A stretch of DNA of 53,447 bases, from positions 1-53,447 of the forward strand of contig CAYIHE010000001.1 of assembly GCA_964363145.1 (NCBI GenBank). The letters run 5' to 3'. Origin of the DNA: an uncultured Gammaproteobacteria bacterium. GTDB lineage: Bacteria > Patescibacteriota > Patescibacteriia > Magasanikbacterales > GWA2-37-8. Shown piece by piece: positions 19,827 to 47,100 of this stretch. The position numbers and the translations under genes were made by a program. Position 1 is the first letter of the stretch, and each line of letters starts with the position of its first letter. The notes beneath the pieces are model-generated. The model was not told the DNA's origin and searched no databases. It was given only the letters and a program-made list of their open reading frames with translations.

Positions 19827-20984
19827 TTAGGAAACGGGCGATTTACTTTCCAAATTTCTTAATTGTCCGCAAGCCGCGGCAATGTCTTGACCTTGAGAGT
19901 ATCGGATAGTGGAAATAAATCCGGCGTTCATTAACGTTTCGTGCCAATGCGCAATATTTTCTTTGTCAGAGCCGACCAACCCACCCCCGCCCGCTTCGCT
20001 CGGCGAAGCCGAGCGGGCAGGCCTACCCACAATCGCCTCCCGCAGCGAGCGGGATCCGCGATCCTCGAGGATCGGGACAAGCAGGGATTCAGACGATATA
20101 TTATTATACGGAATTAAATTTATTTTTATTTTTCCTAATTTTGACGCCAGTGTTATCAGCGCCTTTAAATCTTTAGGCCCGTCATTAATCCCGCCAAGCA
20201 TTATATACTCCAACCCGATAAAATGCGCGCGGCTAGGAAAAGCGCGGTGATATTTTTTTGCCCAGCCCACCAGATAATCTAAAAATCCCGGCTGATGCGA
20301 AGGCATAATAGCGGCGCGAGTGGTTTCTATGGCGCTGTGCAAAGACAATGCAAAACGCACCGGAGGAAAATCTTTGTCTTCTACCAGCCTGTCCATGGCG
20401 GCCGGAATACCGCAGGTGGACATGGTAATTTTACTTGGGCCGATGTTGGTATATTTTAAAATAATATTTAAAGCGGTTTTACAATTTTCATAATTCAACA
20501 GTGGTTCACCCTGGCCCATTACTACCATATTATCTATTTCTCCGCCATTTTTTTCATTTAAATATCGGGACCAGAAACGATACTGATCCACAATTTCCTC
20601 AACAGTCAAATTCCGGGAAAATCCGGCTTTTCCTGTGGCGCAAAAAGAACATTTCATACCGCAACCAACTTGTGAAGAAATACAAATTGTATAACGCGGT
20701 TTATCACTATTTACTTTCAGCGACCTGCGGCCCATTAAAACCGCTTCAATCAATTGTCCGTCTTCCAATTTTAATAAAGCTTTTTGCGTGTCATCAATTT
20801 TGCTTTTTTGCAAAGTGTGTAATTTTACCGAAAGCCAAGGCTTATCTGTTAATTTTTCGCGCAAATCTTTTGGCAGGGTGGTTATTTCTTCGTAACTATT
20901 TGTGTTTACATCAAACCAGGCGCGGAACACCTGGTCCTGCCTAAATTTCTTTTCGGTTGATAAAATTTGGAATAAATCTATCAT
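19827..20984 (-). CDS. rlmN: 23S rRNA/tRNA (adenine-C2)-methyltransferase RlmN carrying an in-frame repeat insertion
   Basis: 385 aa. Radical SAM CISSQVGCGMKCSFCATG and C-terminal DIAAACGQL. Confidence 0.9.
   Translation of the reverse strand: MIDLFQILSTEKKFRQDQVFRAWFDVNTNSYEEITTLPKDLREKLTDKPWLSVKLHTLQKSKIDDTQKALLKLEDGQLIEAVLMGRRSLKVNSDKPRYTICISSQVGCGMKCSFCATGKAGFSRNLTVEEIVDQYRFWSRYLNEKNGGEIDNMVVMGQGEPLLNYENCKTALNIILKYTNIGPSKITMSTCGIPAAMDRLVEDKDFPPVRFALSLHSAIETTRAAIMPSHQPGFLDYLVGWAKKYHRAFPSRAHFIGLEYIMLGGINDGPKDLKALITLASKLGKIKINLIPYNNISSESLLVPILEDRGSRSLREAIVGRPARSASPSEAGGGGLVGSDKENIAHWHETLMNAGFISTIRYSQGQDIAAACGQLRNLESKSPVS
19978..20080. repeat. Composite of hairpin modules F and E inside rlmN
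   Basis: CCCGCCCGCTTCGCTCGGC (19986-20004) equals 37338-37356. CCCGCAGCGAGCGGGATCCGCGATCCTCGAGGATCGGGACAA (20040-20080) matches 2230-2270 and 51105-51145. Confidence 0.8.
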
Positions 20985-23209
20985 GTTTTAGCAGCTGCCT
21001 TCAAAATCTTTTCCTTAATATCGTTTGGAGTCATTCCGGCCACCTCATATACCTCGGCCGCATTGCCGGATTTTAGATAGTGAGTTATGCCGATGGATTT
21101 ATTGGCGTAATTTGGGCCTAGCATAAACGGATACAAAAATCCTGGCCAGCCGTTGTGGAGAGTGACTACGAGCGGACGTTCTTCCTCCGGCAGAATTAAC
21201 TGGGCGCTTGCCGGATTAGTTTGCCGCAATTCTTCAAATAATTCCGGAGATGTGACGGCGATGATTTTTACATTGAAACCTTGGGCTTCCAGTTCTGGCA
21301 AAATCTCTAGGGTGTTTAATAGGACTTGCATGCCGCAGATTGCCAATACCAATTTTTTATTTTTATGAATAGATCCCTCGTCGGCTACGGCCTCTGTCGG
21401 GATGACAGTGTGAGAAAATTGTTTGTAGACGTAGGCGCCGTTTGTGGCTTCGATCGCCGGTGGAACTTCGGCGCGGTTAATCGTCGGCTGTTCTGTCCTG
21501 TAAACGGACAGAACAACCGGCTCGCCTTTTTCTAAAGCATAAAATAACATTTCTATGGTTTCGTTGGCGTCTGTTGGTTTGTAAACTTTTATTCCAGGCA
21601 AAGCGTTGTAGAGCGACATCCAGTACATTCCCTGATGCGTTGGGCCGTCCTCGCCTGTTTCCGGGCCATCGTGGGCGGCCAAACAAATAAAAAATCCTTT
21701 TGTTTCGGGGTTGAGCTGATTTCCGATAACTGCCAGACGAATAGCGTTGGCCATCATGTTGGTGAAAACCGCGAACGTTCCAAAAACCGAAACGGGTTTG
21801 TATCCCCCGGGCAAAATATCTTGAGTTAAACCAGCGCCCATCATGGCCATATTTTGTTCGGCAATTCCATAACGAATACCGCGCCCCAATGGATTTTTTC
21901 TACTAATGAGTCCGTAGACTTCTTCCGCGGAATTTGTAAAAACAGATTTGGATAAATCCCCTGCTCCGGCATAAAAAAACGCGGTCTGTTTCATGTACCA
22001 TGCCATCCATGCCTGCGCGGCCGTGCGGGTAGAAACTTTTTTTCCTTCCGCAAAAATTAATTCCGGCGGTAAAACTTTTGGACGTTTTATAGCCAGTGGA
22101 TTTACCAGTGGACGGCCGTCCAGAGCTTTCACCATTTGTTTAACTAAATCTGATTCATGCAAAATTTTCTTAGCTCCAACTTCTAATCGTTCTAAAATAT
22201 ATTTTTCATCATCTGAAGTAACTTGCGCCAAAACAGTTTGAATATCGGCCATTACTTTTCCCTGTTCGCCGGGAATATCAAATCCGAGTTTTTTCATTAT
22301 AGAAACATACTCGTCGTGCTTGACTGGAGACCCATGCGAGGCCGCGGTGTTTTCTTTAGAGCCGTAACCTTTGCCTTTTAATGTATGACAAATTACAACC
22401 GTGGGCGAGCCGTTGGCAAAACCTTTGGCCGCCATTTGATACGCGTAAACCATTTCCAAAATATTGTGTCCGTTTGTTTCTATAACATTCCAGCCTAACC
22501 CAAGCCAATGATTTATATAAGGAGACGAAACCACCTCTTCTATTTCGGCGTCAATTCCAAAATGATTATAATCCAGACTGACAATTAAATTTTTTAATCC
22601 GTTGGTGGCGATAATATTGCGTGCTTCGTATGTCATCCCCTCTTCGCTTTCCGCATCACCCATAAAAACAAAAGTTTTGGTATCCAGCCCGCAAGATTGA
22701 TGAACCATGGCCATACCACCGGCCGCGCATAATCCGTGCCCCGATGGCCCGGTAGTAAAATCCGAATATGGATACTGCGCCTCGGCATGACCCTGTGGGC
22801 CATCGGCATGACGGAAACGCAACAAATCTTCCGGAAATACCGCTTTTGTTACCGCAGAGGAAAATTGCCGTCCAGCGCGGCGTAAAATTTCATAATACAA
22901 AGCTTGTCCGGCAAAAAGTAATGGCGTGCAATGCCCGGCGCTCCACACCACCCTGTCTCTGCCCGAATTTTTGGGGTTGGTAGGATCAAAAGCCATTACC
23001 CCGCCCAAGGTCATTGCCAAAAATTGTTCTACTTTGCCGCTACTGCCGCCCGGGTGCCCAGATTGCCCCGCTTCCACAGCCGCAAAAATCAGGCCGCGCA
23101 GAATTTTGGCGAGCTTGTCTAGTCGTTTTACGTCTATGCCTTTTATGTTTGGTATTTTTTTACCTTGGATGTTTATGTATTCTGGCTGGTTGGATGGTTT
23201 GTTGGGCAT
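20981..23209 (-). CDS. tkt: Transketolase (long form)
   Basis: 742 aa. SGHPGGS, GHCTP, GPSGHGL and GEDGPTHQ motifs. Overlaps the rlmN start by 4 nt. Confidence 0.9.
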   Translation of the reverse strand: MPNKPSNQPEYINIQGKKIPNIKGIDVKRLDKLAKILRGLIFAAVEAGQSGHPGGSSGKVEQFLAMTLGGVMAFDPTNPKNSGRDRVVWSAGHCTPLLFAGQALYYEILRRAGRQFSSAVTKAVFPEDLLRFRHADGPQGHAEAQYPYSDFTTGPSGHGLCAAGGMAMVHQSCGLDTKTFVFMGDAESEEGMTYEARNIIATNGLKNLIVSLDYNHFGIDAEIEEVVSSPYINHWLGLGWNVIETNGHNILEMVYAYQMAAKGFANGSPTVVICHTLKGKGYGSKENTAASHGSPVKHDEYVSIMKKLGFDIPGEQGKVMADIQTVLAQVTSDDEKYILERLEVGAKKILHESDLVKQMVKALDGRPLVNPLAIKRPKVLPPELIFAEGKKVSTRTAAQAWMAWYMKQTAFFYAGAGDLSKSVFTNSAEEVYGLISRKNPLGRGIRYGIAEQNMAMMGAGLTQDILPGGYKPVSVFGTFAVFTNMMANAIRLAVIGNQLNPETKGFFICLAAHDGPETGEDGPTHQGMYWMSLYNALPGIKVYKPTDANETIEMLFYALEKGEPVVLSVYRTEQPTINRAEVPPAIEATNGAYVYKQFSHTVIPTEAVADEGSIHKNKKLVLAICGMQVLLNTLEILPELEAQGFNVKIIAVTSPELFEELRQTNPASAQLILPEEERPLVVTLHNGWPGFLYPFMLGPNYANKSIGITHYLKSGNAAEVYEVAGMTPNDIKEKILKAAAKT
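21371..21407. repeat. Half family-B element inside tkt
   Basis: AGATCCCTCGTCGGCTACGGCCTCTGTCGGGATGACA, read through as VIPTEAVADEGSI. Confidence 0.6.
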
Positions 23210-23271
23210 AAAAAAAATTTTAATAGGGTTATTGTACCGATTTTATAATAAAAAAACAAGGACACGCCCAC

Positions 23272-23300
23272 TTGACAAAAAGCTGATTTTATAGTATGAT
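23272..23300 (+). promoter_or_regulatory. Consensus sigma70-like promoter
   Basis: TTGACA (23272-23277), 17-nt spacer, TATGAT (23295-23300). AT-rich, and divergent from the tkt start. Confidence 0.5.
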
Positions 23301-23347
23301 GTTAGGTCTGCTGTTTTTTTGTGCAGACACACACAAGGAGGAATGCG

Positions 23348-23644
23348 ATGCGGGAAATGATCAAGCAGGCAGTGCAAAAGGCGCTTCAGGGATCGCGCAA
23401 GGTCAGGATCACCTTCAAGCGGGAGGCGATAGGCGACGTCAACTACCTGCTGGGGATGGCCAACAGCGAGATCATCTCGCTCAGCAGCATGGACCACATG
23501 GTGATGATGGCGGTCAGCCAGTCCAGCGGCTGGGACGGCGACCGCAACCGCACCACCGTGGTCACTCTCACCGACAAGTTCGAGGAGGAGTGGTTCGTCG
23601 GCCGGATGTACCGCGCCCTCGAGAAGATCGAGGTCGTCGGATAG
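23348..23644 (+). CDS. High-GC orphan protein (98 aa)
   Basis: Start moved to MREMIKQ because AAGGAGG (23335-23341) lies 6 nt upstream. GC-rich third positions (line 23401-23460 is 37/60 GC). Flanked by AT-rich host-like DNA. No motif recognised. Confidence 0.65.
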   Translation: MREMIKQAVQKALQGSRKVRITFKREAIGDVNYLLGMANSEIISLSSMDHMVMMAVSQSSGWDGDRNRTTVVTLTDKFEEEWFVGRMYRALEKIEVVG

Positions 23645-23662
23645 AACCCTCATCTGCAACAA

Positions 23663-23700
23663 GAGCCCCAGGGACATTGTCCCGGGGCTCGAATTTTTTT
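23663..23700 (+). terminator. Intrinsic terminator
   Basis: GAGCCCCAGGGA-CATTG-TCCCGGGGCTC stem with one bulge, followed by GAA and T7. Confidence 0.7.
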
Positions 23701-23728
23701 ACAAAAAATTATACAATTTGTTCCCATT

Positions 23729-23929
23729 TTATTTTTTGTAATATTTCGCGTATCCCTGTTTGTCTTCGGTGATTTGTTCCATTATTTTATCCGCCAACTC
23801 TGAATTGCCATCTTTAGCAATAACCGCATTCGCTAAATGCACAAGGCATCTTACTTTTTCAGCTTGATTTTGGATCTCGTTTGCTTTTTGTAGGGCGGTA
23901 TTAATATCATTATTATTTTCATAATGCAT
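23729..23929 (-). CDS. Hypothetical 66-aa helical protein
   Basis: ORF with host-like composition directly downstream of the 152-aa membrane protein. No motif. Confidence 0.4.
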   Translation of the reverse strand: MHYENNNDINTALQKANEIQNQAEKVRCLVHLANAVIAKDGNSELADKIMEQITEDKQGYAKYYKK

Positions 23930-23963
23930 TTTTGCGATTCTAATTAATATTTTTTATTTATCA

Positions 23964-24422
23964 TTAAAAATTTAGAATATTAGCAACTACCAGAACAATA
24001 CCGGCGCCGAATAAACATCCAGCCATTTTGCCGACCGCTGATTTGAGTATTGTCCTTTCTTCTGAAACTAATTGCAATCTTAATTTTTCCGCGGAATAGC
24101 CTTCAAAAATTCCAGCAATACCATCGGTTATGGCATTACCTACAACTCCACCTAAAATGGCGCCAGTTACACCGGCAAAATGACCGCCAAAAATTGCCAA
24201 AACAGCTAAAATTCCGTTATCTATTAACCCAAAAACAATATCTGGCTGGATCGATCTTAACTTTATCTTGAAAGGCAGAAGAGAGAATATGCAAAGTACA
24301 GCGAGAATAATTAAAACAAAACCTATCCACCGAGCATTGTTAATAAAAAAGACACTAACTGCAGCAATAACTACGCAAAGTGTTAAAATGTTCAATATAG
24401 ATAGAATGAATTTTTGACGCAT
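23964..24422 (-). CDS. Hypothetical Gly-rich membrane protein
   Basis: 152 aa, 4 TM. Glycine-zipper segment GGHFAGVTGAILGGVVGNAITDGIAGIFEG. Confidence 0.55.
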   Translation of the reverse strand: MRQKFILSILNILTLCVVIAAVSVFFINNARWIGFVLIILAVLCIFSLLPFKIKLRSIQPDIVFGLIDNGILAVLAIFGGHFAGVTGAILGGVVGNAITDGIAGIFEGYSAEKLRLQLVSEERTILKSAVGKMAGCLFGAGIVLVVANILNF

Positions 24423-24485
24423 ATTATAAAAAAGTGTTAGACGTTAGCCATAAAAAGAAAAGGAATATTTCAGCTAATGGCGCGC

Positions 24486-24626
24486 GGCTATGCGCTGTGG
24501 CCGGACCCCGTTTCACGGGGGCTGGACATAGCGTATAGCCGCTGTTATGCAATGTGTGCCGCGCACACTTGCAGAACAGCGGGAACCGCGCGCCATTATG
24601 CAAAATGCGCGGCGCATTTTGCATAA
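24486..24626 (+). other. Cluster of three GC-rich hairpins/palindromes (possible plus-strand RNA or protein-binding sites)
   Basis: IR0 at 24486-24540 around CCCCG-TTTCA-CGGGG. IR1 at 24548-24573. IR2 is a perfect 15+1+15 palindrome TTATGCAAAATGCGC-G-GCGCATTTTGCATAA (24596-24626). Confidence 0.5.
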
Positions 24627-24685
24627 CTGGTTACTATACGAAATGTTTACCTATAATACCCCGAAAACCGTACAACATCAACTTC

Positions 24686-24731
24686 CTACTCCTCCCAAAA
24701 CTACTCATGCTCAAACATCCGGCGTTTCCAT
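24686..24731. repeat. Left copy of a ~46-nt direct repeat
   Basis: CTACTCCTCCCAAAAC...TCAAACATCCGGCGTTTCCAT versus 25669-25714 (15/16 and 20/21 matches in the two conserved blocks). Confidence 0.65.
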
Positions 24732-24783
24732 AAACCCCACCCCTCGCCCCTCCCCTTTTAGGGGAAGGATAAAGGGATGGGTA

Positions 24784-25002
24784 TTAGTATTTTTCAAAAT
24801 CCTCTCCTTTCAACCCGGACTGGATTAAAATTGCCCGAAAAGTTCCGTAAGGTATTTCTTTGTACTTCATTTTAACGGTAACATTTCGCGTAGGATTGCC
24901 AATTTTGCGAAAACGCGCGTGCGACCCCTTTTGACGAACAAACAAAAAGCCCTTTGCTTTAAGGACTTCTAACACCAAGCTTAATAATATCGGCTTAGGC
25001 AT
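24784..25002 (-). CDS. hicA: HicA-family toxin
   Basis: 72 aa. LKAKGFLFVRQKGSHARF...IPYGTFRAILIQSGL matches the HicA pattern. Overlaps hicB by 8 nt. Confidence 0.8.
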   Translation of the reverse strand: MPKPILLSLVLEVLKAKGFLFVRQKGSHARFRKIGNPTRNVTVKMKYKEIPYGTFRAILIQSGLKGEDFEKY

Positions 25003-25213
25003 ACTTTAAAGAAAGCGGTACCAGATCAGGGTGTTCCACTTTGTGAATTTTAGAGATGGGCATATCTTCAAAATATAATTCTAGCGCTTCCTGCAAACTT
25101 TCCATGGCTTCTTTTTTGGTTTTTCCAAAACTAGAAATATCCGTATTGATATTCCAGGAGACAAAATACTTGCCTTCTTTCCAAACTACATTTTTTAAGT
25201 CTATTTTACGCAT
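24995..25213 (-). CDS. hicB: HicB-family antitoxin (UPF0150-like)
   Basis: 72 aa. YFVSWNINTDISSFGKTKKEAMESLQEALELYFED. Paired with hicA. Confidence 0.7.
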   Translation of the reverse strand: MRKIDLKNVVWKEGKYFVSWNINTDISSFGKTKKEAMESLQEALELYFEDMPISKIHKVEHPDLVPLSLKYA

Positions 25214-25285
25214 ATTATTAAGATTAACTTAATAACTTTATTATACCTTAAATAAAAAATAAATACAACCTCTCTAGTCTATCGC

Positions 25286-25567
25286 TCATACTTTATTTTT
25301 TAATTTAATACTCAAAATCAAAATAATAAGACAGGATCCAAAATTTAGTCCGAATATTATTTGTAAAAGCAAATCAGATATAAAAACAATACTATATAAA
25401 AAACCAATGCTGCTGGTTAATGTCCACAAAGCATAGGATGAAATATTGGCGCTTGGTTTTTTATTATACAAATCCTTAATTGTCGGCCAATAGCCGACAA
25501 TGCTGGCAATGCCGGTGACGCCAAAAGCAAGAATTAAAATTTTTAGAAGTATTTGCTGGGTTGACAT
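25286..25567 (-). CDS. 3-TM PQ-loop/SemiSWEET-like membrane protein
   Basis: 93 aa, three TM. YWPTIKDLYNKKPSANIS resembles the PQ-loop motif with Q replaced by T. Confidence 0.45.
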   Translation of the reverse strand: MSTQQILLKILILAFGVTGIASIVGYWPTIKDLYNKKPSANISSYALWTLTSSIGFLYSIVFISDLLLQIIFGLNFGSCLIILILSIKLKNKV

Positions 25568-25668
25568 AGGTTATGTTGTATTTCATCGTTCAAAAAATAA
25601 AAAACCACAGAATTTATACTACACTTGCACGCTTTACATTGTACCAATTTTATTATTTTAGGACAAAT

Positions 25669-25714
25669 CTACTTCTCCCAAAACCGCCCCTCTTCAAACA
25701 TCTGGCGTTTCCAT
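25669..25714. repeat. Right copy of the ~46-nt direct repeat
   Basis: CTACTTCTCCCAAAAC...TCAAACATCTGGCGTTTCCAT. See 24686-24731. Confidence 0.65.
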
Positions 25715-25720
25715 TTATAA

Positions 25721-25765
25721 GCCCGTCCCTGCGTCTACAACGCAGGGAAACTGGGCGGGCTTTTT
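25721..25765 (+). terminator. Orphan intrinsic-terminator-like hairpin
   Basis: Nested stems GCCCG/CGGGC and CCCTGCGT/ACGCAGGG, then T5. No plus-strand gene lies upstream. Confidence 0.4.
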
Positions 25766-25836
25766 AGGCAAAGTATCGGCTCCGCCGATATATATTGTAT
25801 TTCGCCCTTCATTTCATTGCGGGCACTAATAAAAAT

Positions 25837-28107
25837 CTATTCCTGCCAAAATCTTCCTTGCTCGAACATCTGCCTTTTCCACTTGTAGAAGTTTAGATAC
25901 TCACATAAAGTAAGTGGTGAACTGGTAGCGGAATTATAATCACCGGCTTCACACTTAATTTGATCGGGAATGTTATAACTGATTGTTCTTTCCCCTTTTT
26001 CGTCAATTTGATTGATATACAATCCAAACTCATGCATGCCAAGCAAGTTAGGATATTTTTCCCGATCATCAAAAATAGAATGCCCTTCAAACGAATTTGG
26101 AACATTAATGCCCAACAAATTTAAAACCGAAGGCGCGAAGTCAATTCCGGACATATATTTATCTATTTTCTTCGGCAAAATATTACTCGGCACGTACATC
26201 ATAAACGCGTTTTCATCATAAAAATTTACCTTGCCGGCGTCTTCCGGAAAAATATCTTTTGTAACTCCGGCCGGAAAAACAGCGTGATCCGCAATCGCGA
26301 TCACAATTGTATTGTCATAGAATCTACTTATTTTAAATCTCTCCCAAAATATCCTAAAAGCATCATCCGTTGTATGAAACGCGTTTAAAGCGTTGCTTCG
26401 GCTGTTCCTAAATTGAACCACGTCCTTAACGGAAGTAAATGGCAAATGGGAATCAACAGTGGCAAGCATCATAAAAAACGGTTCCGGCTTTTTTTCCAGC
26501 ATATCCATCATCACCGGAAACATTTGGTGGTCGGAATAACCCCAGGCCAAGGGCTCGCCTGGAATAATTTTTGCCAATTCCGCGGTGCCAAAAACCTCAT
26601 CAGTGCCCATGCTGGCAAATAGCGTATCCTTATTCGCAAAATTTTTCTGCACAGCCGTAATATATCCGGTGTACTTGTATCCGTTATTTTTTAATATCTT
26701 CGGAAGACATTGCAAATACACTTTCTTGATCCTCTTTTCTTTTTCAAACTCTTCATGCCCGGTTGGCGGCAAAAACGAACAAAGCTGGGACATGATTCCG
26801 GTTATGCTGGGCGTGGAAGCGTTATATAAATTCCAAAAAACCGTGGTGTTTTTATCGTTCGCAAATTCATCCAAGCCTGGCGTTAAATTTTTAAATCGGT
26901 TGTTATTGTAAACATCCACGAACCGCGAAGAAAAAGATTCCAAATAAATCAAAATTACATTCGGCTTTTCATTTTTAAATTTTTCCGGAAGCAATATCTC
27001 GGATTTTGCGTACACCTTGTCCTTGGAAGCGACGGAAAATTTGTCTGTATTGTATTTCAATCCGAATCTTTCCAATTTGCCAAAAACATACGGAGGCAAA
27101 TTTATTTTTACGTTTTTACTAAAAAAATAATTATAAAATGATCTGGCAACAACAAATTCTGGCGCGGATTGAATAGAACTTGACGCTCCGATTACCAGGA
27201 AACCGGTCAAAATTATTAAATAATGATAAAATTTCCAATATCGTTTTGAGGCAATGTTGTGCGCGCGCAAGACATATTTGACAACAGTCAGCAGAGCGAC
27301 AAAACTGATAAGATACGCGGCCAACAGGATGTAGGTAAGCCAGTTCCAAATAACGCCGCTGGATTCGCCGGCATGCTGTAAAACAACCGGACTAAAATAT
27401 AAACCCGCGAAATAAAGCACGCCAGCATTGACTACCCACAGAAATAACACAAGCATCTGCGCGCCAGCCCAAATTAAAATTCCCAAATAACGCCACCATT
27501 TTTTACTTCCCATATAAACCAGCGCGCCAAGCGCGAACCCGATCATCCAGAGCATTGTCATTGACCACGACCGGAAGACAATTATGTTGTAAATTTTACT
27601 TTGCGCGTCTAAAATATAAAATTTAAATCCAAAATATTGCAAGGCGCTGTTTAACGTAAAAAGAAAAATAACAATGGCAAACACGCCTTTGTTTATTACC
27701 TTCCAGTCGGGAGCGCCGTGGTGTCCGGATAATTGCCGGCTGACCACAAAAAATAAAAGCGTCAAAATACCAATTGAATAAATTAAGCTTAACAAATCAT
27801 TCCGCGAAAAAAATACTAAAAACAACAACGAGGCGGTCAGAAAAAGCTTGTCTATTGATTTGGCAAAATATGTATACCAAAAAGGATGCCTTTCGGTTTT
27901 TCTAACTATATATAAAAATAATTTCTTTCCGGCAATAAATAAAAGATAAACAACAACCCATGTGGCTATGGAAATTAAAATAAACCTTGCGTGCGGCTTG
28001 TGTTTTAGATGATACCAATTCCAACCGGCGGTAATAATAAAGGCGCCGGCTAACGGGTAGAGAGCCGGCAACCAAGTTTTAACGCGATTAAAAATTAATT
28101 TTAACAT
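25837..28107 (-). CDS. LtaS-like membrane-anchored sulfatase/phosphoglycerol transferase
   Basis: 756 aa. About 10 N-terminal TM helices, then an alkaline-phosphatase-superfamily domain (ILIYLESFSS, ATVDSHLPF, IADHAVF). Confidence 0.8.
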   Translation of the reverse strand: MLKLIFNRVKTWLPALYPLAGAFIITAGWNWYHLKHKPHARFILISIATWVVVYLLFIAGKKLFLYIVRKTERHPFWYTYFAKSIDKLFLTASLLFLVFFSRNDLLSLIYSIGILTLLFFVVSRQLSGHHGAPDWKVINKGVFAIVIFLFTLNSALQYFGFKFYILDAQSKIYNIIVFRSWSMTMLWMIGFALGALVYMGSKKWWRYLGILIWAGAQMLVLFLWVVNAGVLYFAGLYFSPVVLQHAGESSGVIWNWLTYILLAAYLISFVALLTVVKYVLRAHNIASKRYWKFYHYLIILTGFLVIGASSSIQSAPEFVVARSFYNYFFSKNVKINLPPYVFGKLERFGLKYNTDKFSVASKDKVYAKSEILLPEKFKNEKPNVILIYLESFSSRFVDVYNNNRFKNLTPGLDEFANDKNTTVFWNLYNASTPSITGIMSQLCSFLPPTGHEEFEKEKRIKKVYLQCLPKILKNNGYKYTGYITAVQKNFANKDTLFASMGTDEVFGTAELAKIIPGEPLAWGYSDHQMFPVMMDMLEKKPEPFFMMLATVDSHLPFTSVKDVVQFRNSRSNALNAFHTTDDAFRIFWERFKISRFYDNTIVIAIADHAVFPAGVTKDIFPEDAGKVNFYDENAFMMYVPSNILPKKIDKYMSGIDFAPSVLNLLGINVPNSFEGHSIFDDREKYPNLLGMHEFGLYINQIDEKGERTISYNIPDQIKCEAGDYNSATSSPLTLCEYLNFYKWKRQMFEQGRFWQE

Positions 28108-40822: not shown

Positions 40823-41158
40823 AGCCAGACGGATTTTCCTTATAGGAAAATCTCGTCGCTAAAAACAAAAAACCACCCAGAGAGAGTCACCTAACGAAGT
40901 AATAAATTACTTAGTCGGGTAATCGGGTGGTATTTTTGTTAGGCAGATAAATCTGCCCATTTCCGCTCACTTTATAAATGAACGCAAATGGACAGGTCTG
41001 CCAGCGAAAGCCCCAAAGGGGTCCTTCAATTCTAGTGATTATATTTTTGTACTTTCGTAGCTTTCGTATTTCGTACATAATCATTAAAATTGAAGGGGGG
41101 AAGAGAGTTGCTTAAACAACCGCTATCTCTACTCTCTTCCCCCACCAGGATACTACTC

Positions 41159-41953
41159 CTACTCCATGTTTCGCCCGTCGTACGTGCACTTGAACATGTC
41201 GTAGTAAACCGCGTGATAGAAGGTGCTTTCGACACCGCTCCACTCGATCTGACAGTCAATGGCGACACGATTGCCACCACTCGAGTAACATTCGACCGAG
41301 CAGCTAGAGGCTGGCGCCGCCTTCCACGGATCACCGGCCAGACCGTCGTACAGACTTTCCGGAGGGTAAGTCCCCAACGGAGGTGCTGGCTCGGCGATCT
41401 CGAATCCGCCCCAGAACACGCAGTTCACGGCTGACTCCGACGGCCAAATTTGCATGCCACCGCAATCGGCCAGGGTGTACACACACGTACCTCCCGAGCA
41501 CGAATCGTTCGTCCAGCCCCACCCGTCGTCGCAGTCCGCATCATCGTCGCAGGCCGGACAGACCGCGTCCGGCGTGGCCGCGTCCACAGGGGTGGGCGGC
41601 GGGGTCGCATCGGGCGGCGAGGCATCCGGTGGCGGCACAGTGGCCGCGTCGGGCGTGGGCGGAACGGCGGCGTCCGGGCTCGGAACCGAAGCATCCACAG
41701 TGGGTGGAACGGCGGCGTCCGGGGTCTCGGGAACCGTCGCGTCCGGCGTGGCCGGGGTGGCCGCGTCGCACTCGGGCGTGTTGCCCGCGTCCGGCGTCGT
41801 GACCGGGACGGTCGCGTCGGGCTCCATCGGCGACGGAGTCGCGTCGACCTCCTCGGTCGGCGGCTCGGCGTCGGGCAGATCCTGCAGCGGCAGGTCCTCC
41901 ATGAGGCAACCCGTCGCGCCAAGAACACACATCAAGAACAGACTCTTCATCAT
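41159..41953 (-). CDS. High-GC Pro/Thr/Asp/Ala-repeat, Cys-rich putative lipoprotein
   Basis: Start at MMKSLFLMCVLGATGC (signal peptide plus lipobox-like Cys). SD GAGGAG at 41962-41967. PDA(A/T)VPP repeats. CPACDDDADCDDGWGWTNDSCSGGTC block. Confidence 0.7.
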   Translation of the reverse strand: MMKSLFLMCVLGATGCLMEDLPLQDLPDAEPPTEEVDATPSPMEPDATVPVTTPDAGNTPECDAATPATPDATVPETPDAAVPPTVDASVPSPDAAVPPTPDAATVPPPDASPPDATPPPTPVDAATPDAVCPACDDDADCDDGWGWTNDSCSGGTCVYTLADCGGMQIWPSESAVNCVFWGGFEIAEPAPPLGTYPPESLYDGLAGDPWKAAPASSCSVECYSSGGNRVAIDCQIEWSGVESTFYHAVYYDMFKCTYDGRNME

Positions 41954-42046
41954 TGTCTCATCTCCTCTGGCCGCATCCGTGCGACCATATCTCGAACGTG
42001 ATCTCCACTCCAACCAACGGCATCATTGCCATGGTTGTAGTTTTTT

Positions 42047-42120
42047 TGTCATCCTGAACATAGTGAAGGATCTCTGTCCGTTTGATTGGACAAAATTTCT
42101 TCGCTTTGTTCAGAATGACA
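42047..42120. repeat. Family B element inside the high-GC island
   Basis: TGTCATCCTGAACATAGTGAAGGATCTCTGTCC...TTCGCTTTGTTCAGAATGACA. AT-rich like the host. Confidence 0.85.
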
Positions 42121-42174
42121 AGGTAAATTCATTTTAAGGTGCTTTTTCGATCTGTTTCATATTCCTATTTCTAC

Positions 42175-42212
42175 CAGACAGAGATCCCTCACCTGGATGG
42201 TTCGGGATGACA
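42175..42212. repeat. Half family-B element
   Basis: CAGACAGAGATCCCTCACCTGGATGGTTCGGGATGACA. Confidence 0.65.
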
Positions 42213-42302
42213 ATCGTGAGTGGAATAAGGATATGAATGAATCGCCCTGCACCAGCCGACTCCTTTTGGGAATCAACTGGCGCAGGGAACTGCTGTGGGG
42301 AC

Positions 42303-42998
42303 TTACCTCCCCCACAAGTAGGACAGGTTGAAGCCGCTTACGGCGGCGTACTCTTGGGGAGTGTCCCCGTGAGCGCGCGAACCGCGCACACCGTAGGAAA
42401 CATACCCCTCAAGCAACATCCCGGCCTTTTCTACCGCTACCCGGAAAGACGGGCCGTAGAACGTCTCGTTCCAGGTCTCGCGTGGATGCGAGTCCTGGTT
42501 GATGGTTCCGAGCAGGTCGAAACCGACCCCGAAAGCCACGATCTTCGTATCCGGCGTTGCGTAGCACATGACGGCTACGGAGCTGGACACGGAGATGGTG
42601 TTGAAGCGGCCATCGCCCAGTCCGGCCCGGGCGCGAATGCGCCACGGCGAGGACTTGAAGCCGATCTGACCGACGAGGTCGGCTGTGATCGCCAGACCGC
42701 CACTTGGGTCTCCAAGCAGGTAGGCGTAGCCGAAGCCGATGCCTCCACGAAGGGAGGTGTCGGACTTCTCCTCCACCACGACGAGCCGGGTGGGGGCCGC
42801 CAGCGCCACCTTCTTCTTGAAGAATGGGACCGGGATGAGAACCTCGATGGTGAGGGTCTCACCGGCCTTGGGGGCCGAGAAGACCATTGGCTTGTCGGCG
42901 TCTTCGGCCGACACGGTGACGGTCTTGTCCTCGGCGCGAGCGTTCGTCACGCCTACGGCACAGAACATCAGAAACACCATCTGCTTCGCATTCTTCAT
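42303..42998 (-). CDS. High-GC secreted protein with an outer-membrane beta-barrel-like pattern
   Basis: 231 aa. Signal peptide MKNAKQMVFLMFCAVGVTNARA. About 8 alternating-hydrophobic strands (GIGFGYAYLLG, KIVAFGVGFDLLG, YAAVSGFNLSYLW). SD GAGGAG at 43007-43012. Confidence 0.65.
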   Translation of the reverse strand: MKNAKQMVFLMFCAVGVTNARAEDKTVTVSAEDADKPMVFSAPKAGETLTIEVLIPVPFFKKKVALAAPTRLVVVEEKSDTSLRGGIGFGYAYLLGDPSGGLAITADLVGQIGFKSSPWRIRARAGLGDGRFNTISVSSSVAVMCYATPDTKIVAFGVGFDLLGTINQDSHPRETWNETFYGPSFRVAVEKAGMLLEGYVSYGVRGSRAHGDTPQEYAAVSGFNLSYLWGR

Positions 42999-43226
42999 CT
43001 TCTCGTCTCCTCTGGTCCCGCTCCTGCGGGGCCGTTTGTGAATTGTAAAAAACGATCTTCTTCATCCCCCCACCACTATTAGTGAGGAGACCAAGTGATC
43101 GTGCGAGTGGTTTAGACTCGCACGGGGTAGGCATGATCCCGATTCGCCGGTTGGCAAATGGGACACATGTGTTGGTCGGTGAGGGACCTGCCATGCACCG
43201 GTCGCCCTAGGCGACCTGGTGCGGGG

Positions 43227-43784
43227 CTACTCCTCGCCGAAATACACGGGCTCCAGCCTCGGCACGACTACGATCGTGCCGAGCTGGGTTGAGACAGGCG
43301 CGGCCCTGATGGCCGCAACCTCCTGCTCGACGGCCTCGACCCTTTGCCGAACGTTCTGCGCGTACTTGCGCAGATCGCGGCGGTTGGCCTTCTTGGCGTC
43401 GTCCAGATCGACCAAGTCGGCCTTGGTCTTGAGATCGCTCAGGTCGGCCTTGCTGGCCTGCAGCTTCTTGATCTCGCTGAGGAGGCCTGCGGCGGACTGG
43501 CGGTCCGTCACTGCGTCGGCCTCCAAGACCCCAGTCCTTTTCTCGACCTGGAGTATGCGAACCTGCAGCATGGTGATGTCCGCGCCGGTCTGGGCCGTCT
43601 GGGCCTTGACCGTGGCCGCGCTGTTGTCGCGCGACACCTTGCCTTGGCAAGTGACAGCCAGGAGAACCAGTGTCGCGGCCAAGATCATGGCCATGAAAAC
43701 CGCAAATGCTACCGGCTTGCGCTGTGGCCGCTTCGTCACCGCCGTCGACTCGTCCGGATTTCCACCGTTCTGCTGTCCGCTCAT
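43227..43784 (-). CDS. High-GC single-pass membrane protein with a coiled-coil ectodomain
   Basis: 185 aa. TM segment VAFAVFMAMILAATLVLLAV, then heptad-like LQVRILQVEKR...LLSEIKKLQASKADLSDLK. SD GAGGAG at 43792-43797. Confidence 0.65.
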   Translation of the reverse strand: MSGQQNGGNPDESTAVTKRPQRKPVAFAVFMAMILAATLVLLAVTCQGKVSRDNSAATVKAQTAQTGADITMLQVRILQVEKRTGVLEADAVTDRQSAAGLLSEIKKLQASKADLSDLKTKADLVDLDDAKKANRRDLRKYAQNVRQRVEAVEQEVAAIRAAPVSTQLGTIVVVPRLEPVYFGEE

Positions 43785-43846
43785 GTTCTTTCTCCTCTCG
43801 GTCAGTTCACCCTCGTCTTGGCCACACGGCCTACGAAGGGTTTGAT

Positions 43847-43938
43847 TGTCATTCTGAACCTAATAAAGAATTTCTGCTTTGTAAAACAGACAGAGATTCT
43901 TCACTACGTTCAGAATGACAATTGGTGACAGAATGACA
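43847..43938. repeat. Family B element with duplicated right terminus at the island border
   Basis: TGTCATTCTGAACC...GACAGAGATTCTTCACTACGTTCAGAATGACA (to 43920), plus a second ACAGAATGACA (43928-43938). Confidence 0.85.
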
Positions 43939-44181: not shown

Positions 44182-47100
44182 TTAACGTCCGGTTATATCT
44201 TTTAGCTTATTTAAGTCCTCCCACTGCTCATCGGACAATTTAATAGCTTCTTGGTGTGTAAATTTTCTAGTTACACCATATTGGTCCGTCATAAGCAATT
44301 CGCCTTTTTCGTTAGTGTTAAAAATCCAATCTTTATCATGAATAAAAATATCTTCACCTTCCACCGGATCCCAAATTCTAGCCGCATGTCCACCGTTGGT
44401 CAAAACTGGTTCTCGGAGCACTTCCCTACCTTCAATCATAACTAAATCAATTACTTTGTCTTCTTTTTTAAACATAACGTCGCGAAAATCAGACATCCAA
44501 TCTGGTTTATATGTGTTAAATTTCTCTTCCACGGCTAAAACTTTTTCTATTATTCTTAAATTTTCACTACCTGTAATCTCGTGGCTAGAAAGCTTCTCAA
44601 ATATAAGATCCGGCTGATTATTATACAAGAAATCAATTTTCTTTTGCAAAATTATTTCCGAATCACCCCGGAAAACAAATGAGTTGTTAAATTTTTCTAT
44701 GGTCGCGTCTACCATTTTATCGTAAGTATTTATAAATTCTCTAGGACTGGAACCACGCTCACGCAAAAATTCATTGGCAGAAACACGAACATCCTCGGCT
44801 GGCGCCGCCGCTGTTTCTATTCCCGCGGAACCTTTTGCGCCAACTGACACAGCCGATGTTTTGGTTTCCACCGCCGAAGTTTTGGCAGATATAGTATTCA
44901 AAGTTTTTTCCACACGCGTTGGAGCCGGCGCGTTGATTTTTGCTTCCGGCGGATAATCGGTCATTAGTTCCGCTCCCGATTTGGCAGACACTTCTTTGGC
45001 TGCTTCCAGCGGACTAGTTCTTTCCAAAGTGGTATGTTCGGACAAAACAAATTTGGGTTCTGTTGCAACAGGCTCGGCGCCGGGCAATACGGCCGCTGTT
45101 TCGTGATGAATACCCGTGCTCATTTGATCTACCGTTACAGACCCGCTGCCGCTTAAAATTGGCTGGTTATTTTCCAAACCAAAGTAGTTGACTTCTCCAC
45201 GAACATGATTATCAATCCCGGGTTTGGCATCAGTAGCATCAACTTCCAATCCGGCGTTGGCCAAATCCGTGCTTTCCCTGCCTTGCATAGCTCTAAACAA
45301 CCCTCTTACCATTTTGTTATCTTCTTCGTCATACTGCCGGGCAAATTTCAAGTACTGGGCAGGCGTATCTTTATCAATATACTTGGACAAATAACTTAAA
45401 TGCCGCTCGCTAAAATCCTGGCTCTGCAAATATTTGGCGGCTGATTCCGGCCCGCCTTTTTTTAATAATTCTTCAAAAATCACCTGCCGGCGTTCTCCTC
45501 CGCCTTCGTCTAAAGTATCTATGTGACCCTTAATAAAACTATAATGTGAACGAACGCCGCCTCCAACTTGGCTGGAGTTTAAAATATTCTGAACTGAATC
45601 CGGATTATTTAATTCCGGATATTCTTGTGCCAAATTACTAAGCGCGGCCGCGGCTTCCGGACTTAATTTATGTTCCAGAGCAAATTGATCCACGGAAAAA
45701 CTAGACGCCACTTCTACCGGAACAACCGAGGAGCTAACTTCACCAGACGCCATTTGTTTCGGTTCCAGTCCCTCTTCACCGGCCGGATGCGAGGATTGTT
45801 TATGATCTCCGCGCAAATACTCTTGTAATTTGGCGGTACCATAACCCAGCCCGGCGCCAGCCACCGCGCCAACTACCCCATACCCAACCGCGCGCCACCA
45901 GCCGGGTTTGCGCAAAATTCTTTGTTTGATATTTTGCTGTTCAGTGGTTAAGCTTTCTAAATCTTTATTTAAACCGGTTAAAAGATTTTCCACGGCACTA
46001 TGGCGCAAATTTTCCGGAGCCGGCACTTCATCTAATTGCGGAGCTTCGTTTAAATAAATATTTATCTGCAAAGATTCCACTCGACGCAAAACATTTTGAG
46101 CGCGTAATTTTAAATTTATATCGCCTTCCAACATTCCCAAAGTTAAAGGCACACGCAAATCTTTGGCGCTTTCTGCCAATTCCGCCATATTTTCCGGCTT
46201 GAATTCGCCCGCATTTTCTGTTTTTTGCCTTTGCGCCCAAGTTTCTACCAATTTTTCCGCTTTAGCGATATTGTTTTTAAATTCTTTTTCAAATTGCATT
46301 TCTCTGGCTTTGCGATCTTTGAGGTGGCCATATTTTACTCCCAAGTAACCGCCGGCCGCAGCGCCCAACAAGGCCCGCAGTTCCGGCGCCGCGGCCAAAG
46401 CCGCGCCAATGCTGGCGCCAGCTGCCACTGAACCTAAAACCGAAGCGATTTTTCTGGCACTGCTTTCTTTTTTAACCGGATCTTTATCAGCGTCTTTAAC
46501 AAACTTGCTGAATTCTTGGCCATAAATAGTCAGGTTTTGCAATTTTTTAACAATTTTCGGATCGCGATTAATAAGCTCCTGGATTAAAGCTTCCAAATCT
46601 TTGTCTTCGTATAATTTTTTGATTAAAACTTCAACTCTTTCGGTTTGACTGCGTTTTATTTCTATTGCCGATTCTTCGCCAGAGGATATTTTTACTTCGG
46701 CAAATTCTTTGTCAATTTGGCCGGCGACTTCTTCCAAAGCAACTTCGGCGTTGGCTTTTACTTTGGTTATATCTTCATTTTTTACTGCCGAAGCGCTGGC
46801 GTCGCGCAAACTCTGGCTTAACATGGCGGAAAGCTGTTCCAGCATTTGCGGACCTTCTTCGCCGGTAAATTGAGCCAGCAAACTATCGCGCAAGTTTAAA
46901 GATTTTTCTTCTTTTATTTTTTCTTTGCCAACGGAAATTTCCTGATTGGCGTTTTCTTTTCTTTTATTAAACCAGCCCCTAATGCCATCCACTTTGTTTT
47001 TTAGTCCACGCAACAATCCGGTGGCGCCGCCTACAGCGGCGCCACGAACCGCGCTACTGGCGCCGCCAGTGGACAGCAACAATCCCACACTGCCGCCCAA

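Follow-up and report, generated by a model that had tools for sequence, protein, structure and literature searches.

A native small gene with GC-rich silent sites, conserved across related AT-rich genomes of the candidate phyla radiation

The locus and its expression signals

We analyzed a 53,447-nt contig assembled from a metagenome (NCBI GenBank CAYIHE010000001.1; its whole length is hereafter called the window) and, within it, a gene of 98 codons that spans positions 23272 to 23700 together with its expression signals (Table 1). The window is a genome segment of the type found in the candidate phyla radiation (CPR), with about 42% guanine plus cytosine (G+C), and it carries the ATP synthase operon, metG, the transketolase gene tkt, cell-wall genes, and a hicAB pair. 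The small gene lies in a variable interval bounded by tkt on the left and by a gene of the membrane sulfatase family on the right, both of which are conserved anchors of the locus. A first-pass annotation, made from the letters alone, had proposed here an open reading frame (ORF) of 98 amino acids (aa), preceded by the Shine-Dalgarno (SD) sequence AAGGAGG and followed by a terminator. The reading frame and the autonomous signals were correct, where automatic gene calls failed.

The promoter had been described as a perfect TTGACA-17-TATGAT element divergent from tkt. Its orientation and spacing stand, but "perfect" slightly overstates the match, as one of the 12 consensus positions is missed. 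Transcription would start near 23307, giving a putative 5' untranslated region (UTR). The SD (23335-23341) ends 6 nt 5' of the ATG and is one of two copies of this motif in the window, and the same UTR also holds a short out-of-frame ATG mini-ORF (23343-23360). At the other end of the unit, the terminator hairpin is G+C-rich and bulged, with 12 pairs, a folding energy of -23.6 kcal/mol, and a z-score of -4.07. These signals recur in orthologous cassettes of other genomes. An alignment of eight of them shows conservation of the -35 (CTTGACA), the -10, the SD, and the terminator stem, and the same hairpin trails the orthologues with compensatory changes. The 5' UTRs of the orthologues are unconserved except for the SD; a conserved 5'-UTR structure was considered and rejected, because these regions can be aligned at the SD only. 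We conclude that the stretch from 23272 to 23700 is one complete, native, monocistronic transcription unit, with a near-consensus promoter, a strong SD, and its own terminator.

Table 1. Coordinates of the features discussed in the text (positions in the window unless another locus is named)
Feature	Position	Strand	Details
Sigma-70-type promoter	23272..23300	+	TTGACA 23272-23277, 17-nt spacer, TATGAT 23295-23300; 11/12 consensus matches
Putative 5' UTR	23307..23347	+	about 41 nt, 46% GC; probable transcription start near 23307
Coding sequence, 98 aa	23348..23644	+	ATG 23348, TAG 23642-23644
Intrinsic terminator	23663..23700	+	hairpin GAGCCCCAGGGAC/GTCCCGGGGCUC 23663-23690, GAA, then seven T 23694-23700
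Transketolase gene tkt	20981..23209	-	conserved left anchor of the locus
Membrane sulfatase-family gene	25837..28107	-	conserved right anchor of the variable interval
hicA toxin gene (72 aa, PF07927) overlapping a 72-aa HicB-like/DUF7387 gene	24784-25213		1.1 kb from the 98-codon gene
46-nt direct repeats	24686-24731, 25669-25714, 25837-25882		three copies, 72-100% identical
GC-rich three-gene cluster	41100-43900	-	GC 0.61-0.67, GC3 0.78-0.84; lower-GC spacers
Diverged paralogues near the orthologue	L011 3159-4283; L003 2004-2324, 3358-3672; L004 7319-7666

Coding frame, recorded gene calls, and assembly

The G+C content of the three codon positions (GC1, GC2, and GC3) is 0.545, 0.364, and 0.919 in the sense frame, which is an unmistakable coding signal. 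The protein-level conservation and the confident AlphaFold2 (AF2) model presented below belong to this 98-aa frame as well. The public gene calls at the locus use wrong frames. The one recorded for the public 53,447-bp NCBI contig is an antisense ORF of 144 aa (23243..23677, minus strand), which we rejected as spurious: it contains stops in 4 of 9 orthologues, and it is fully open in the other 5 because its stops need an A at sense third positions, where A is rare. The one recorded for a 4557-bp ENA contig, an ORF of 158 aa (23296..23772, plus strand), is also spurious, as it is out of frame and its G+C by position (0.71/0.53/0.36) is that of a shifted frame. Both calls are by-products of the high GC3. 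The exact product, of 98 or 107 aa, is not on record in a collection of 15 billion proteins. Gene finders that have learned the composition of the host pick a wrong frame or strand here, so that the real family, which counts hundreds of clusters, is under-annotated.

A G+C-rich segment of about 390 nt with its own promoter and terminator might also be a structured non-coding or dual-function RNA, or the antisense 144-aa ORF, which has a gene call on record and is open in 5 of 9 orthologues, might be the real gene. GC islands in AT-rich genomes are often structured RNAs, and the whole transcript folds at z = -3.05 relative to dinucleotide shuffles. However, Rfam gave no match at gathering thresholds anywhere in the window, and only terminator-like noise at E<=10 (23150-23800). 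The extreme codon periodicity, the protein conservation, and the AF2 model are all in the sense frame, the stops in 4 orthologues speak against the antisense gene, and its openness elsewhere is a by-product of how seldom A occurs at third positions of the sense frame. The coding sequence taken alone folds at z = -1.24 relative to its own synonymous permutations, and its synonymous sites are near-random. A specific conserved mRNA fold was rejected on these two grounds; no particular mRNA structure has been selected, and any benefit must come from composition. Hence, we regard a functional RNA or an antisense gene as highly improbable.

Sharp composition boundaries in a metagenome-assembled contig could in principle result from the chimeric joining of reads from a high-GC organism into a CPR contig, and the first-pass annotation had asked for the junctions to be checked. 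L010, a 4557-bp contig assembled independently from Hainich groundwater, aligns colinearly with positions 22167-26723 of the window, across both junctions, with 99.45% identity. All 25 differences lie inside tkt, within 175 bp (22222-22396), and positions 22397-26723 are identical, so that both gene junctions are the same in an independent assembly. Furthermore, orthologous cassettes with AT-rich flanks were found in at least nine other assemblies from different projects. An assembly artefact is thus refuted for practical purposes. As a separate observation, the cluster of differences at 22222-22396 reflects either a tract of recombination or the mixing of strains in one of the assemblies.

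Base composition and codon usage

The step in composition follows the trend described at first sight. The G+C content rises from 0.33 in the upstream spacer to 0.61 in the coding sequence (37 of 60 bases at 23401-23460), with the jump at the SD, and falls to 0.18 past the terminator. Averaged over the orthologues, it goes up at the start codon, remains high through the short 3' UTR and the terminator, and then drops to 0.27. The other long ORFs of the window have GC3 values of 0.28-0.52, and the neighbours have about 0.42. The earlier statement that the third positions are unlike those of any neighbour is right as to the value of 0.919 but too broad, since GC3 reaches 0.78-0.84 in three genes at 41.2-43.8 kb. 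More precisely, the window holds exactly four genes in which one codon phase has a G+C content of 70% or more: the 98-codon gene and these three. The first-pass annotation had also noted that many native genes of similar composition would speak against a foreign origin, and the conserved three-gene cluster at 41-44 kb supplies them in part.

The shift is far outside what the protein sequence imposes. When we recoded the 98-aa protein with host codon usage, that is, with the usage of the window (20,000 trials), GC3 had a mean of 0.47, a standard deviation of 0.044, and a maximum of 0.636, which places the native gene 10.3 standard deviations above the recodings. GC1 and GC2 fall inside the range of host genes, and the silent positions alone are shifted. 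The choice of codons is a mirror image of that of the host: AAG accounts for 87% where the host has 87% of AAA, GAG for 79% (host GAA, 82%), TTC for 97% (host TTT, 88%), and CTC/CTG for 73% (host TTA/TTG, 62%). C and G are used about equally at third positions (389 and 338, respectively), which looks like composition pressure and not like a fit to particular tRNAs. The amino-acid composition matches the family median and is unlike that of a G+C-rich proteome (GARP/FYMINK ratio of 0.75).

Within the gene, GC3 forms a ramp: it is 0.67 over codons 1 to 10 and exceeds 0.9 near the 3' end. Across 15 clade members, GC3 correlates with the match of the promoter to the consensus (Spearman 0.73, p = 0.002), a p-value that is indicative only, as these genes are related and not independent. 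Finally, the native coding sequence has a minimum free energy of -118 kcal/mol, compared with -76 kcal/mol for the recodings with host usage.

Synteny and age of the gene

The arrangement of the locus is shared with related genomes. In L011, we found in succession tkt, a small membrane-protein gene, a TTGACA-17-TATAAG promoter, the orthologue, a terminator of the same design as that of the window, three diverged paralogues, and the sulfatase-family gene. L003 has the same arrangement, and both are related CPR genomes of the Parcubacteria/Kuenenbacteria-like type. The tkt of the window is 79% identical in nucleotides to the one of L011 (L011:3-1474). Between genomes, tkt has an amino-acid identity of 0.87, with 0.10 non-synonymous (dN) and 1.18 synonymous (dS) substitutions per site, and the dS of the sulfatase gene is above 2 or undefined. 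The flanking genes are therefore synonymously saturated, or nearly so, between these genomes.

The small gene has GC3 values of 0.92, 0.93, and 0.85 in the three syntenic genomes. In nine orthologues from independent assemblies they range from 0.71 to 0.94, for loci of 41-45% G+C, and in each of these loci the family member is essentially the sole gene with high GC3. At residues conserved between pairs of orthologues, the same codon is used with a frequency of 0.58, when 0.49 is expected from codon frequencies, and many pairs sit at the expected value. The silent sites have thus almost fully turned over and their G+C content is still high, which implies that the bias is maintained as an equilibrium. 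A simple two-state model of neutral decay, starting at a GC3 of 0.95 with a per-lineage dS of 0.6-1.5, predicts values of 0.47-0.67, whereas 0.85-0.93 is observed in the syntenic genomes. Holding GC3 at its level needs a scaled bias S of about 2.8 per site. These results show that the gene is native, vertically inherited, and old, and that the GC step was not left behind by a recent insertion.

The first-pass annotation had read the gene as a lone foreign acquisition, and several of its traits are those of a recent, unameliorated arrival from a high-GC donor, possibly with a defence or accessory role. Its GC3 of 0.92 and its codon usage are typical of high-GC bacteria, it sits in a variable interval near the hicAB module, and in another locus (L004) the context holds PD-(D/E)XK and NYN nucleases. 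The protein also evolves quickly: its dN of 0.23-0.26 exceeds that of tkt (0.10) and that of the sulfatase gene between sister genomes (0.10), and is similar to that of the sulfatase gene in comparisons with the window (0.29-0.32). Yet the orthologues are syntenic in genomes with synonymously saturated flanks, nine independent orthologues have high GC3, and GC1, GC2, and the amino-acid composition are host-like, with silent sites alone shifted. Promoter and terminator are of host type and are conserved together with the gene. In the window, we identified no integrase or other mobility gene, tRNA, or flanking repeat framing the cassette, and ARAGORN detected neither tRNA nor tmRNA over its whole length. 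There was no homologue in a scan of viral contigs, nor in tblastn searches against phages and plasmids, and PADLOC gave no match. A recent acquisition is largely refuted by synteny and saturation, and we consider it very unlikely.

The protein and its family

The product is predicted to be a soluble alpha/beta protein of 98 aa (11.2 kDa, isoelectric point of 8.1), without Cys or Pro. It has no transmembrane segment (maximum of 0.89 for Kyte-Doolittle windows of 19 residues), in agreement with the first description. We found 12 homologues in metagenomes, with 97-107 aa and 57-67% identity, one of which is annotated as coming from a metagenome-assembled genome (MAG) of Candidatus Kuenenbacteria. 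The AF2 model, built on an alignment of these 13 sequences, has a predicted local distance difference test (pLDDT) score of 95.4, a predicted template modelling score of 0.85, and the topology alpha1-beta1-alpha2-beta2-alpha3-beta3-alpha4-beta4. Searched with a profile, 1.84 billion cluster representatives yielded 335 clusters (at 50% identity) with E<=1e-3, and 168 with E<=1e-10, nearly all of them stand-alone proteins of 95-110 aa. The full-length alignment revealed the motifs ITFK, W-x2-D-x-NRT (before beta3), F-x3-WF-x2-R (in alpha4), and IE-V. Four residues (W62, R68, F78, and F83) are shared by 90% or more of the sequences, F83 by all of them. Conserved positions lie in the beta-strands and in the W-x2-D-x-NRT and F-x3-WF-x2-R motifs, and variable ones are concentrated in alpha1, the alpha2-beta2 loop, and alpha3.

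The first reading recognised no motif in the protein, and our searches agree with this. Pfam, NCBIfam, PHROGs, and PADLOC gave no match for the protein, Pfam gave none for any of the 93 family members (alignment A2), and PDB gave none by sequence or by profile. The wider alignments A2 and A3 proved too heterogeneous to serve in scans of loci by pattern. A Foldseek search with the model returned nothing significant, the best E being 0.18 in PDB (generic small alpha/beta domains) and 0.076 in BFVD. A group of uncultured Caudovirales proteins appeared at E of 0.08-0.5 and is not interpretable. The family is undescribed, and its predicted fold appears unrelated to any known one. Its taxonomic distribution, which the first-pass annotation had suggested checking, points to CPR of the Parcubacteria/Kuenenbacteria type. 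In a scan of GTDB, only three species representatives have a close relative, and all are CPR or unclassified MAGs.

Neighbouring genes vary by locus, there is no conserved partner gene, and most loci have the gene as a monocistronic unit under its own promoter and terminator. Distant members (30-35% identity), found in genomes of 34-47% G+C, are likewise monocistronic, with near-consensus promoters and their own terminators. The neighbouring small genes have no Pfam family. Diverged paralogues are clustered in L003, L004, and L011 (Table 1). The one at L003 2004-2324 combines a GC3 of 0.85 and a strong terminator with a promoter that fits the consensus at 11 of 12 positions. GC3 is 0.52-0.60 in the remaining paralogues, whose promoters are weaker except at L004 7319-7666 (11 of 12). 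Rare architectures occur in six members (P0160, P0016, P0026, P0066, P0090, and P0118): one is fused to an N-terminal nucleotidyltransferase (PF01909), two share a Cys-rich C-terminal extension of about 80 aa, and three are tandem two-domain proteins. The fusion partners gave no functional lead, and a 74-aa neighbour in L004 is unrelated to the extension of P0067. The tandem-domain P0066, predicted without an alignment, had a pLDDT of 55 and was not used for a dimer interface. We also noted, in the MAG GFS_1518 (L009 7941-8279, 48.8% G+C over the locus), a family copy that is open for 76 codons and has a tblastn match up to 8279; it is probably frameshifted or decaying, and lies about 1.5 kb from groES and groEL.

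We infer from these patterns that the protein may act alone, as a binding module with diversifying specificity and probably as a dimer. The defence-type function initially put forward did not find support, since PADLOC, Pfam, and NCBIfam matched neither the protein nor the 93 family members and there is no conserved partner. A defence or immunity-like role is a possibility backed by no model or context.

What maintains the GC bias

We favor, with a probability of roughly 60%, the explanation that this is a native transcription unit of an undescribed CPR family, in which the GC bias of the silent sites has long been maintained by selection on the mRNA. The gene would be built for strong constitutive expression, G- and C-ending codons alike would raise the stability and the yield of the transcript, and the lower-GC ramp at the 5' end may be kept for initiation. 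We prefer this explanation because it accounts for the confinement of the bias to silent sites, for its match with the transcript boundaries, for the 5' ramp, and for the correlation with the promoter. Selection for a higher genic G+C content at synonymous sites, independent of the codon usage of the species, has been found by experiment in other bacteria (Kelkar et al. 2015, PMC4478552).

The chief rival is GC-biased gene conversion, or recurrent replacement from a GC-richer pool, affecting a multi-copy family in a recombination-prone variable interval. As an accepted alternative to selection, conversion is discussed in PMC4478552. The tkt-sulfatase interval varies in content between genomes and holds arrays of paralogues, and 46-nt repeats of the 3' end of the sulfatase gene appear to mark nearby cassette insertions. 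Moreover, C- and G-ending codons are both enriched, as a GC bias predicts and tRNA adaptation does not, the amino-acid composition of some family members is the one seen in GC-rich organisms, and the three orthologues in syntenic loci lie at almost equal distances from one another, contrary to how their genomes are related. On the other hand, the GC step keeps to the transcript boundaries within tens of bases, next to spacers of 0.33 and 0.18 G+C, and the variable genes next to it are rich in A+T (GC3 is 0.27 in the 152-aa gene at 23964-24422). GC1 and GC2 are not raised. With less than 40% identity, the paralogues close by have diverged too far for conversion, and most have GC3 of only 0.52-0.60. 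Finally, conversion predicts neither the 5'-to-3' ramp of GC3 nor its correlation with the promoter. On balance, we consider conversion or replacement unlikely.

Selection on the mRNA has difficulties of its own, which we gather here. Among genes that are usually highly expressed, the ATP synthase subunits encoded in the window have GC3 of 0.26-0.56, the hibernation factor (HPF) has 0.38, and groEL and groES in L009 show no shift in GC3. Hence, judged by these genes, a simple rule by which high expression leads to high GC3 would appear to fail in these genomes. The gene of elongation factor P in L016 has a mildly raised GC3, of 0.64. An S of about 2.8 is large for CPR bacteria, which presumably grow slowly and have small populations, and the excess of GC3 in distant family members is small (about +0.05 to +0.15). 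The coding sequence is no more structured than its own synonymous permutations, and the genes behind the promoter correlation are not independent. Lastly, the three syntenic orthologues are nearly equidistant (0.62-0.63 protein identity), even though the flanks make L011 and L003 sister genomes, so that there may be hidden paralogy or replacement. The literature search returned nothing relevant on GC3 or codon usage in CPR, nor on Kuenenbacteria at Hainich.

Other features of the window

The three genes of the GC-rich cluster encode a lipoprotein-like protein of 264 aa rich in P, T, and D, a protein of 231 aa with a signal peptide, and a protein of 185 aa with a transmembrane segment and a coiled coil; none of the three has a Pfam family. 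Their orthologues in L020-L022 are syntenic, between the genes of a giant protein or Wzz-like protein and a Wzy_C gene, and have GC3 of 0.75-0.86. Unlike the 98-codon gene, the cluster has raised GC1 and GC2, and its spacers are less AT-rich. High-GC genes are thus a small but heritable minority in these genomes. Next to the cluster, at 44182-49017, lies the gene of a 1611-aa protein of coiled-coil and low-complexity type, whose counterparts in L020-L022 have 895-1022 aa.

A more speculative proposal, which we hold to be improbable, extends from this minority: these CPR genomes may hold a small, conserved second class of codon usage, comprising the family of about 100 aa and the envelope cluster at 41-44 kb, in which mRNAs would be selected for a high G/C content that places them in a separate expression regime and the product of the small gene would be a diversifying binder of new fold, engaged in symbiont-host or symbiont-phage conflict. 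If so, G/C-rich transcripts might survive the A/U-directed mRNA decay of the cell or the mRNA-interferase toxins (hicAB is 1.1 kb away), and the proteins of the second class might still be made during dormancy or attachment to the host.

Two further observations concern the interval to the right of the small gene. The third copy of the 46-nt direct repeat is the 3' end of the sulfatase-family gene, and L003 has a 93% match to one copy. The pattern looks as if small cassettes (hicAB, and one for a membrane protein of 93 aa) had been inserted serially where the sulfatase gene ends, each time with duplication of the target at its 3' end. In addition, a stretch of about 360 nt (24423-24783) has no convincing ORF, a G+C content of 0.49-0.52, above that of the other spacers, and a palindrome, ATTATGCAAAATGCGCGGCGCATTTTGCATAA, at 24596-24626; it has no match in Rfam.

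Comparison with known systems

In terms of genome behavior, the family is reminiscent of arrays of small immunity or antitoxin proteins, with soluble proteins of about 100 aa, paralogues clustered in L003, L011, and L004, a conserved scaffold with fast-evolving surface helices, and variable regions near toxin-antitoxin and nuclease genes. It differs from them in that neither a toxin partner nor a polymorphic-toxin gene was seen at any of the loci, Pfam immunity families and PADLOC models gave no match, and the organization is mostly monocistronic. The resemblance is in genomic behavior only. In structure, the model is closest to POIA1/subtilisin-propeptide-like inhibitors, NapD, ACT domains, and the PmtCD basket domain, which have a similar size and an alpha/beta sandwich and gave the best Foldseek matches. 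However, these matches are not significant (best E of 0.18, TM-scores of 0.34-0.49), there is no sequence relationship, and the predicted order alpha-beta-alpha-beta-alpha-beta-alpha-beta differs from the ferredoxin-like beta-alpha-beta-beta-alpha-beta. The gene defines a CPR-wide family of small proteins that are predicted to be autonomously expressed.

Like the "alien" genes and genomic islets attributed to horizontal transfer, the locus has an atypical G+C content and codon usage over the length of one gene, in a variable interval between core genes. It departs from them by its synteny in diverged relatives, a shift restricted to silent sites, a bias that has outlasted saturation, conserved signals of host type, and the lack of mobility signatures. 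An unusual base composition is commonly taken as a sign of recent horizontal transfer. This shortcut fails for a native gene whose GC3 has stayed near 0.9 in a genome of 42% G+C while its synonymous sites turned over.

Two further parallels are the processes proposed to keep up the genic G+C content of bacteria. One is the GC-biased conversion of recombining genes (Lassalle et al. 2015, cited in PMC4478552), which raises GC3 in particular genes regardless of codon identity, as observed here; it would be expected to leave tracts that run past the start codon or the terminator, and to affect the neighbours, neither of which is seen. Selection on G+C at synonymous sites (PMC4478552) shares with our case that both C- and G-ending codons are favored in expressed genes, without a preference of the tRNA type. 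Here, in contrast, the force would act on one family and one three-gene cluster in an AT-rich genome, with an S of about 2.8 that is not known to have been reported for single genes. Coming from CPR, where selection on codons is expected to be weak, this gene provides a natural test case for mRNA selection versus biased gene conversion as the keeper of bacterial genic G+C.

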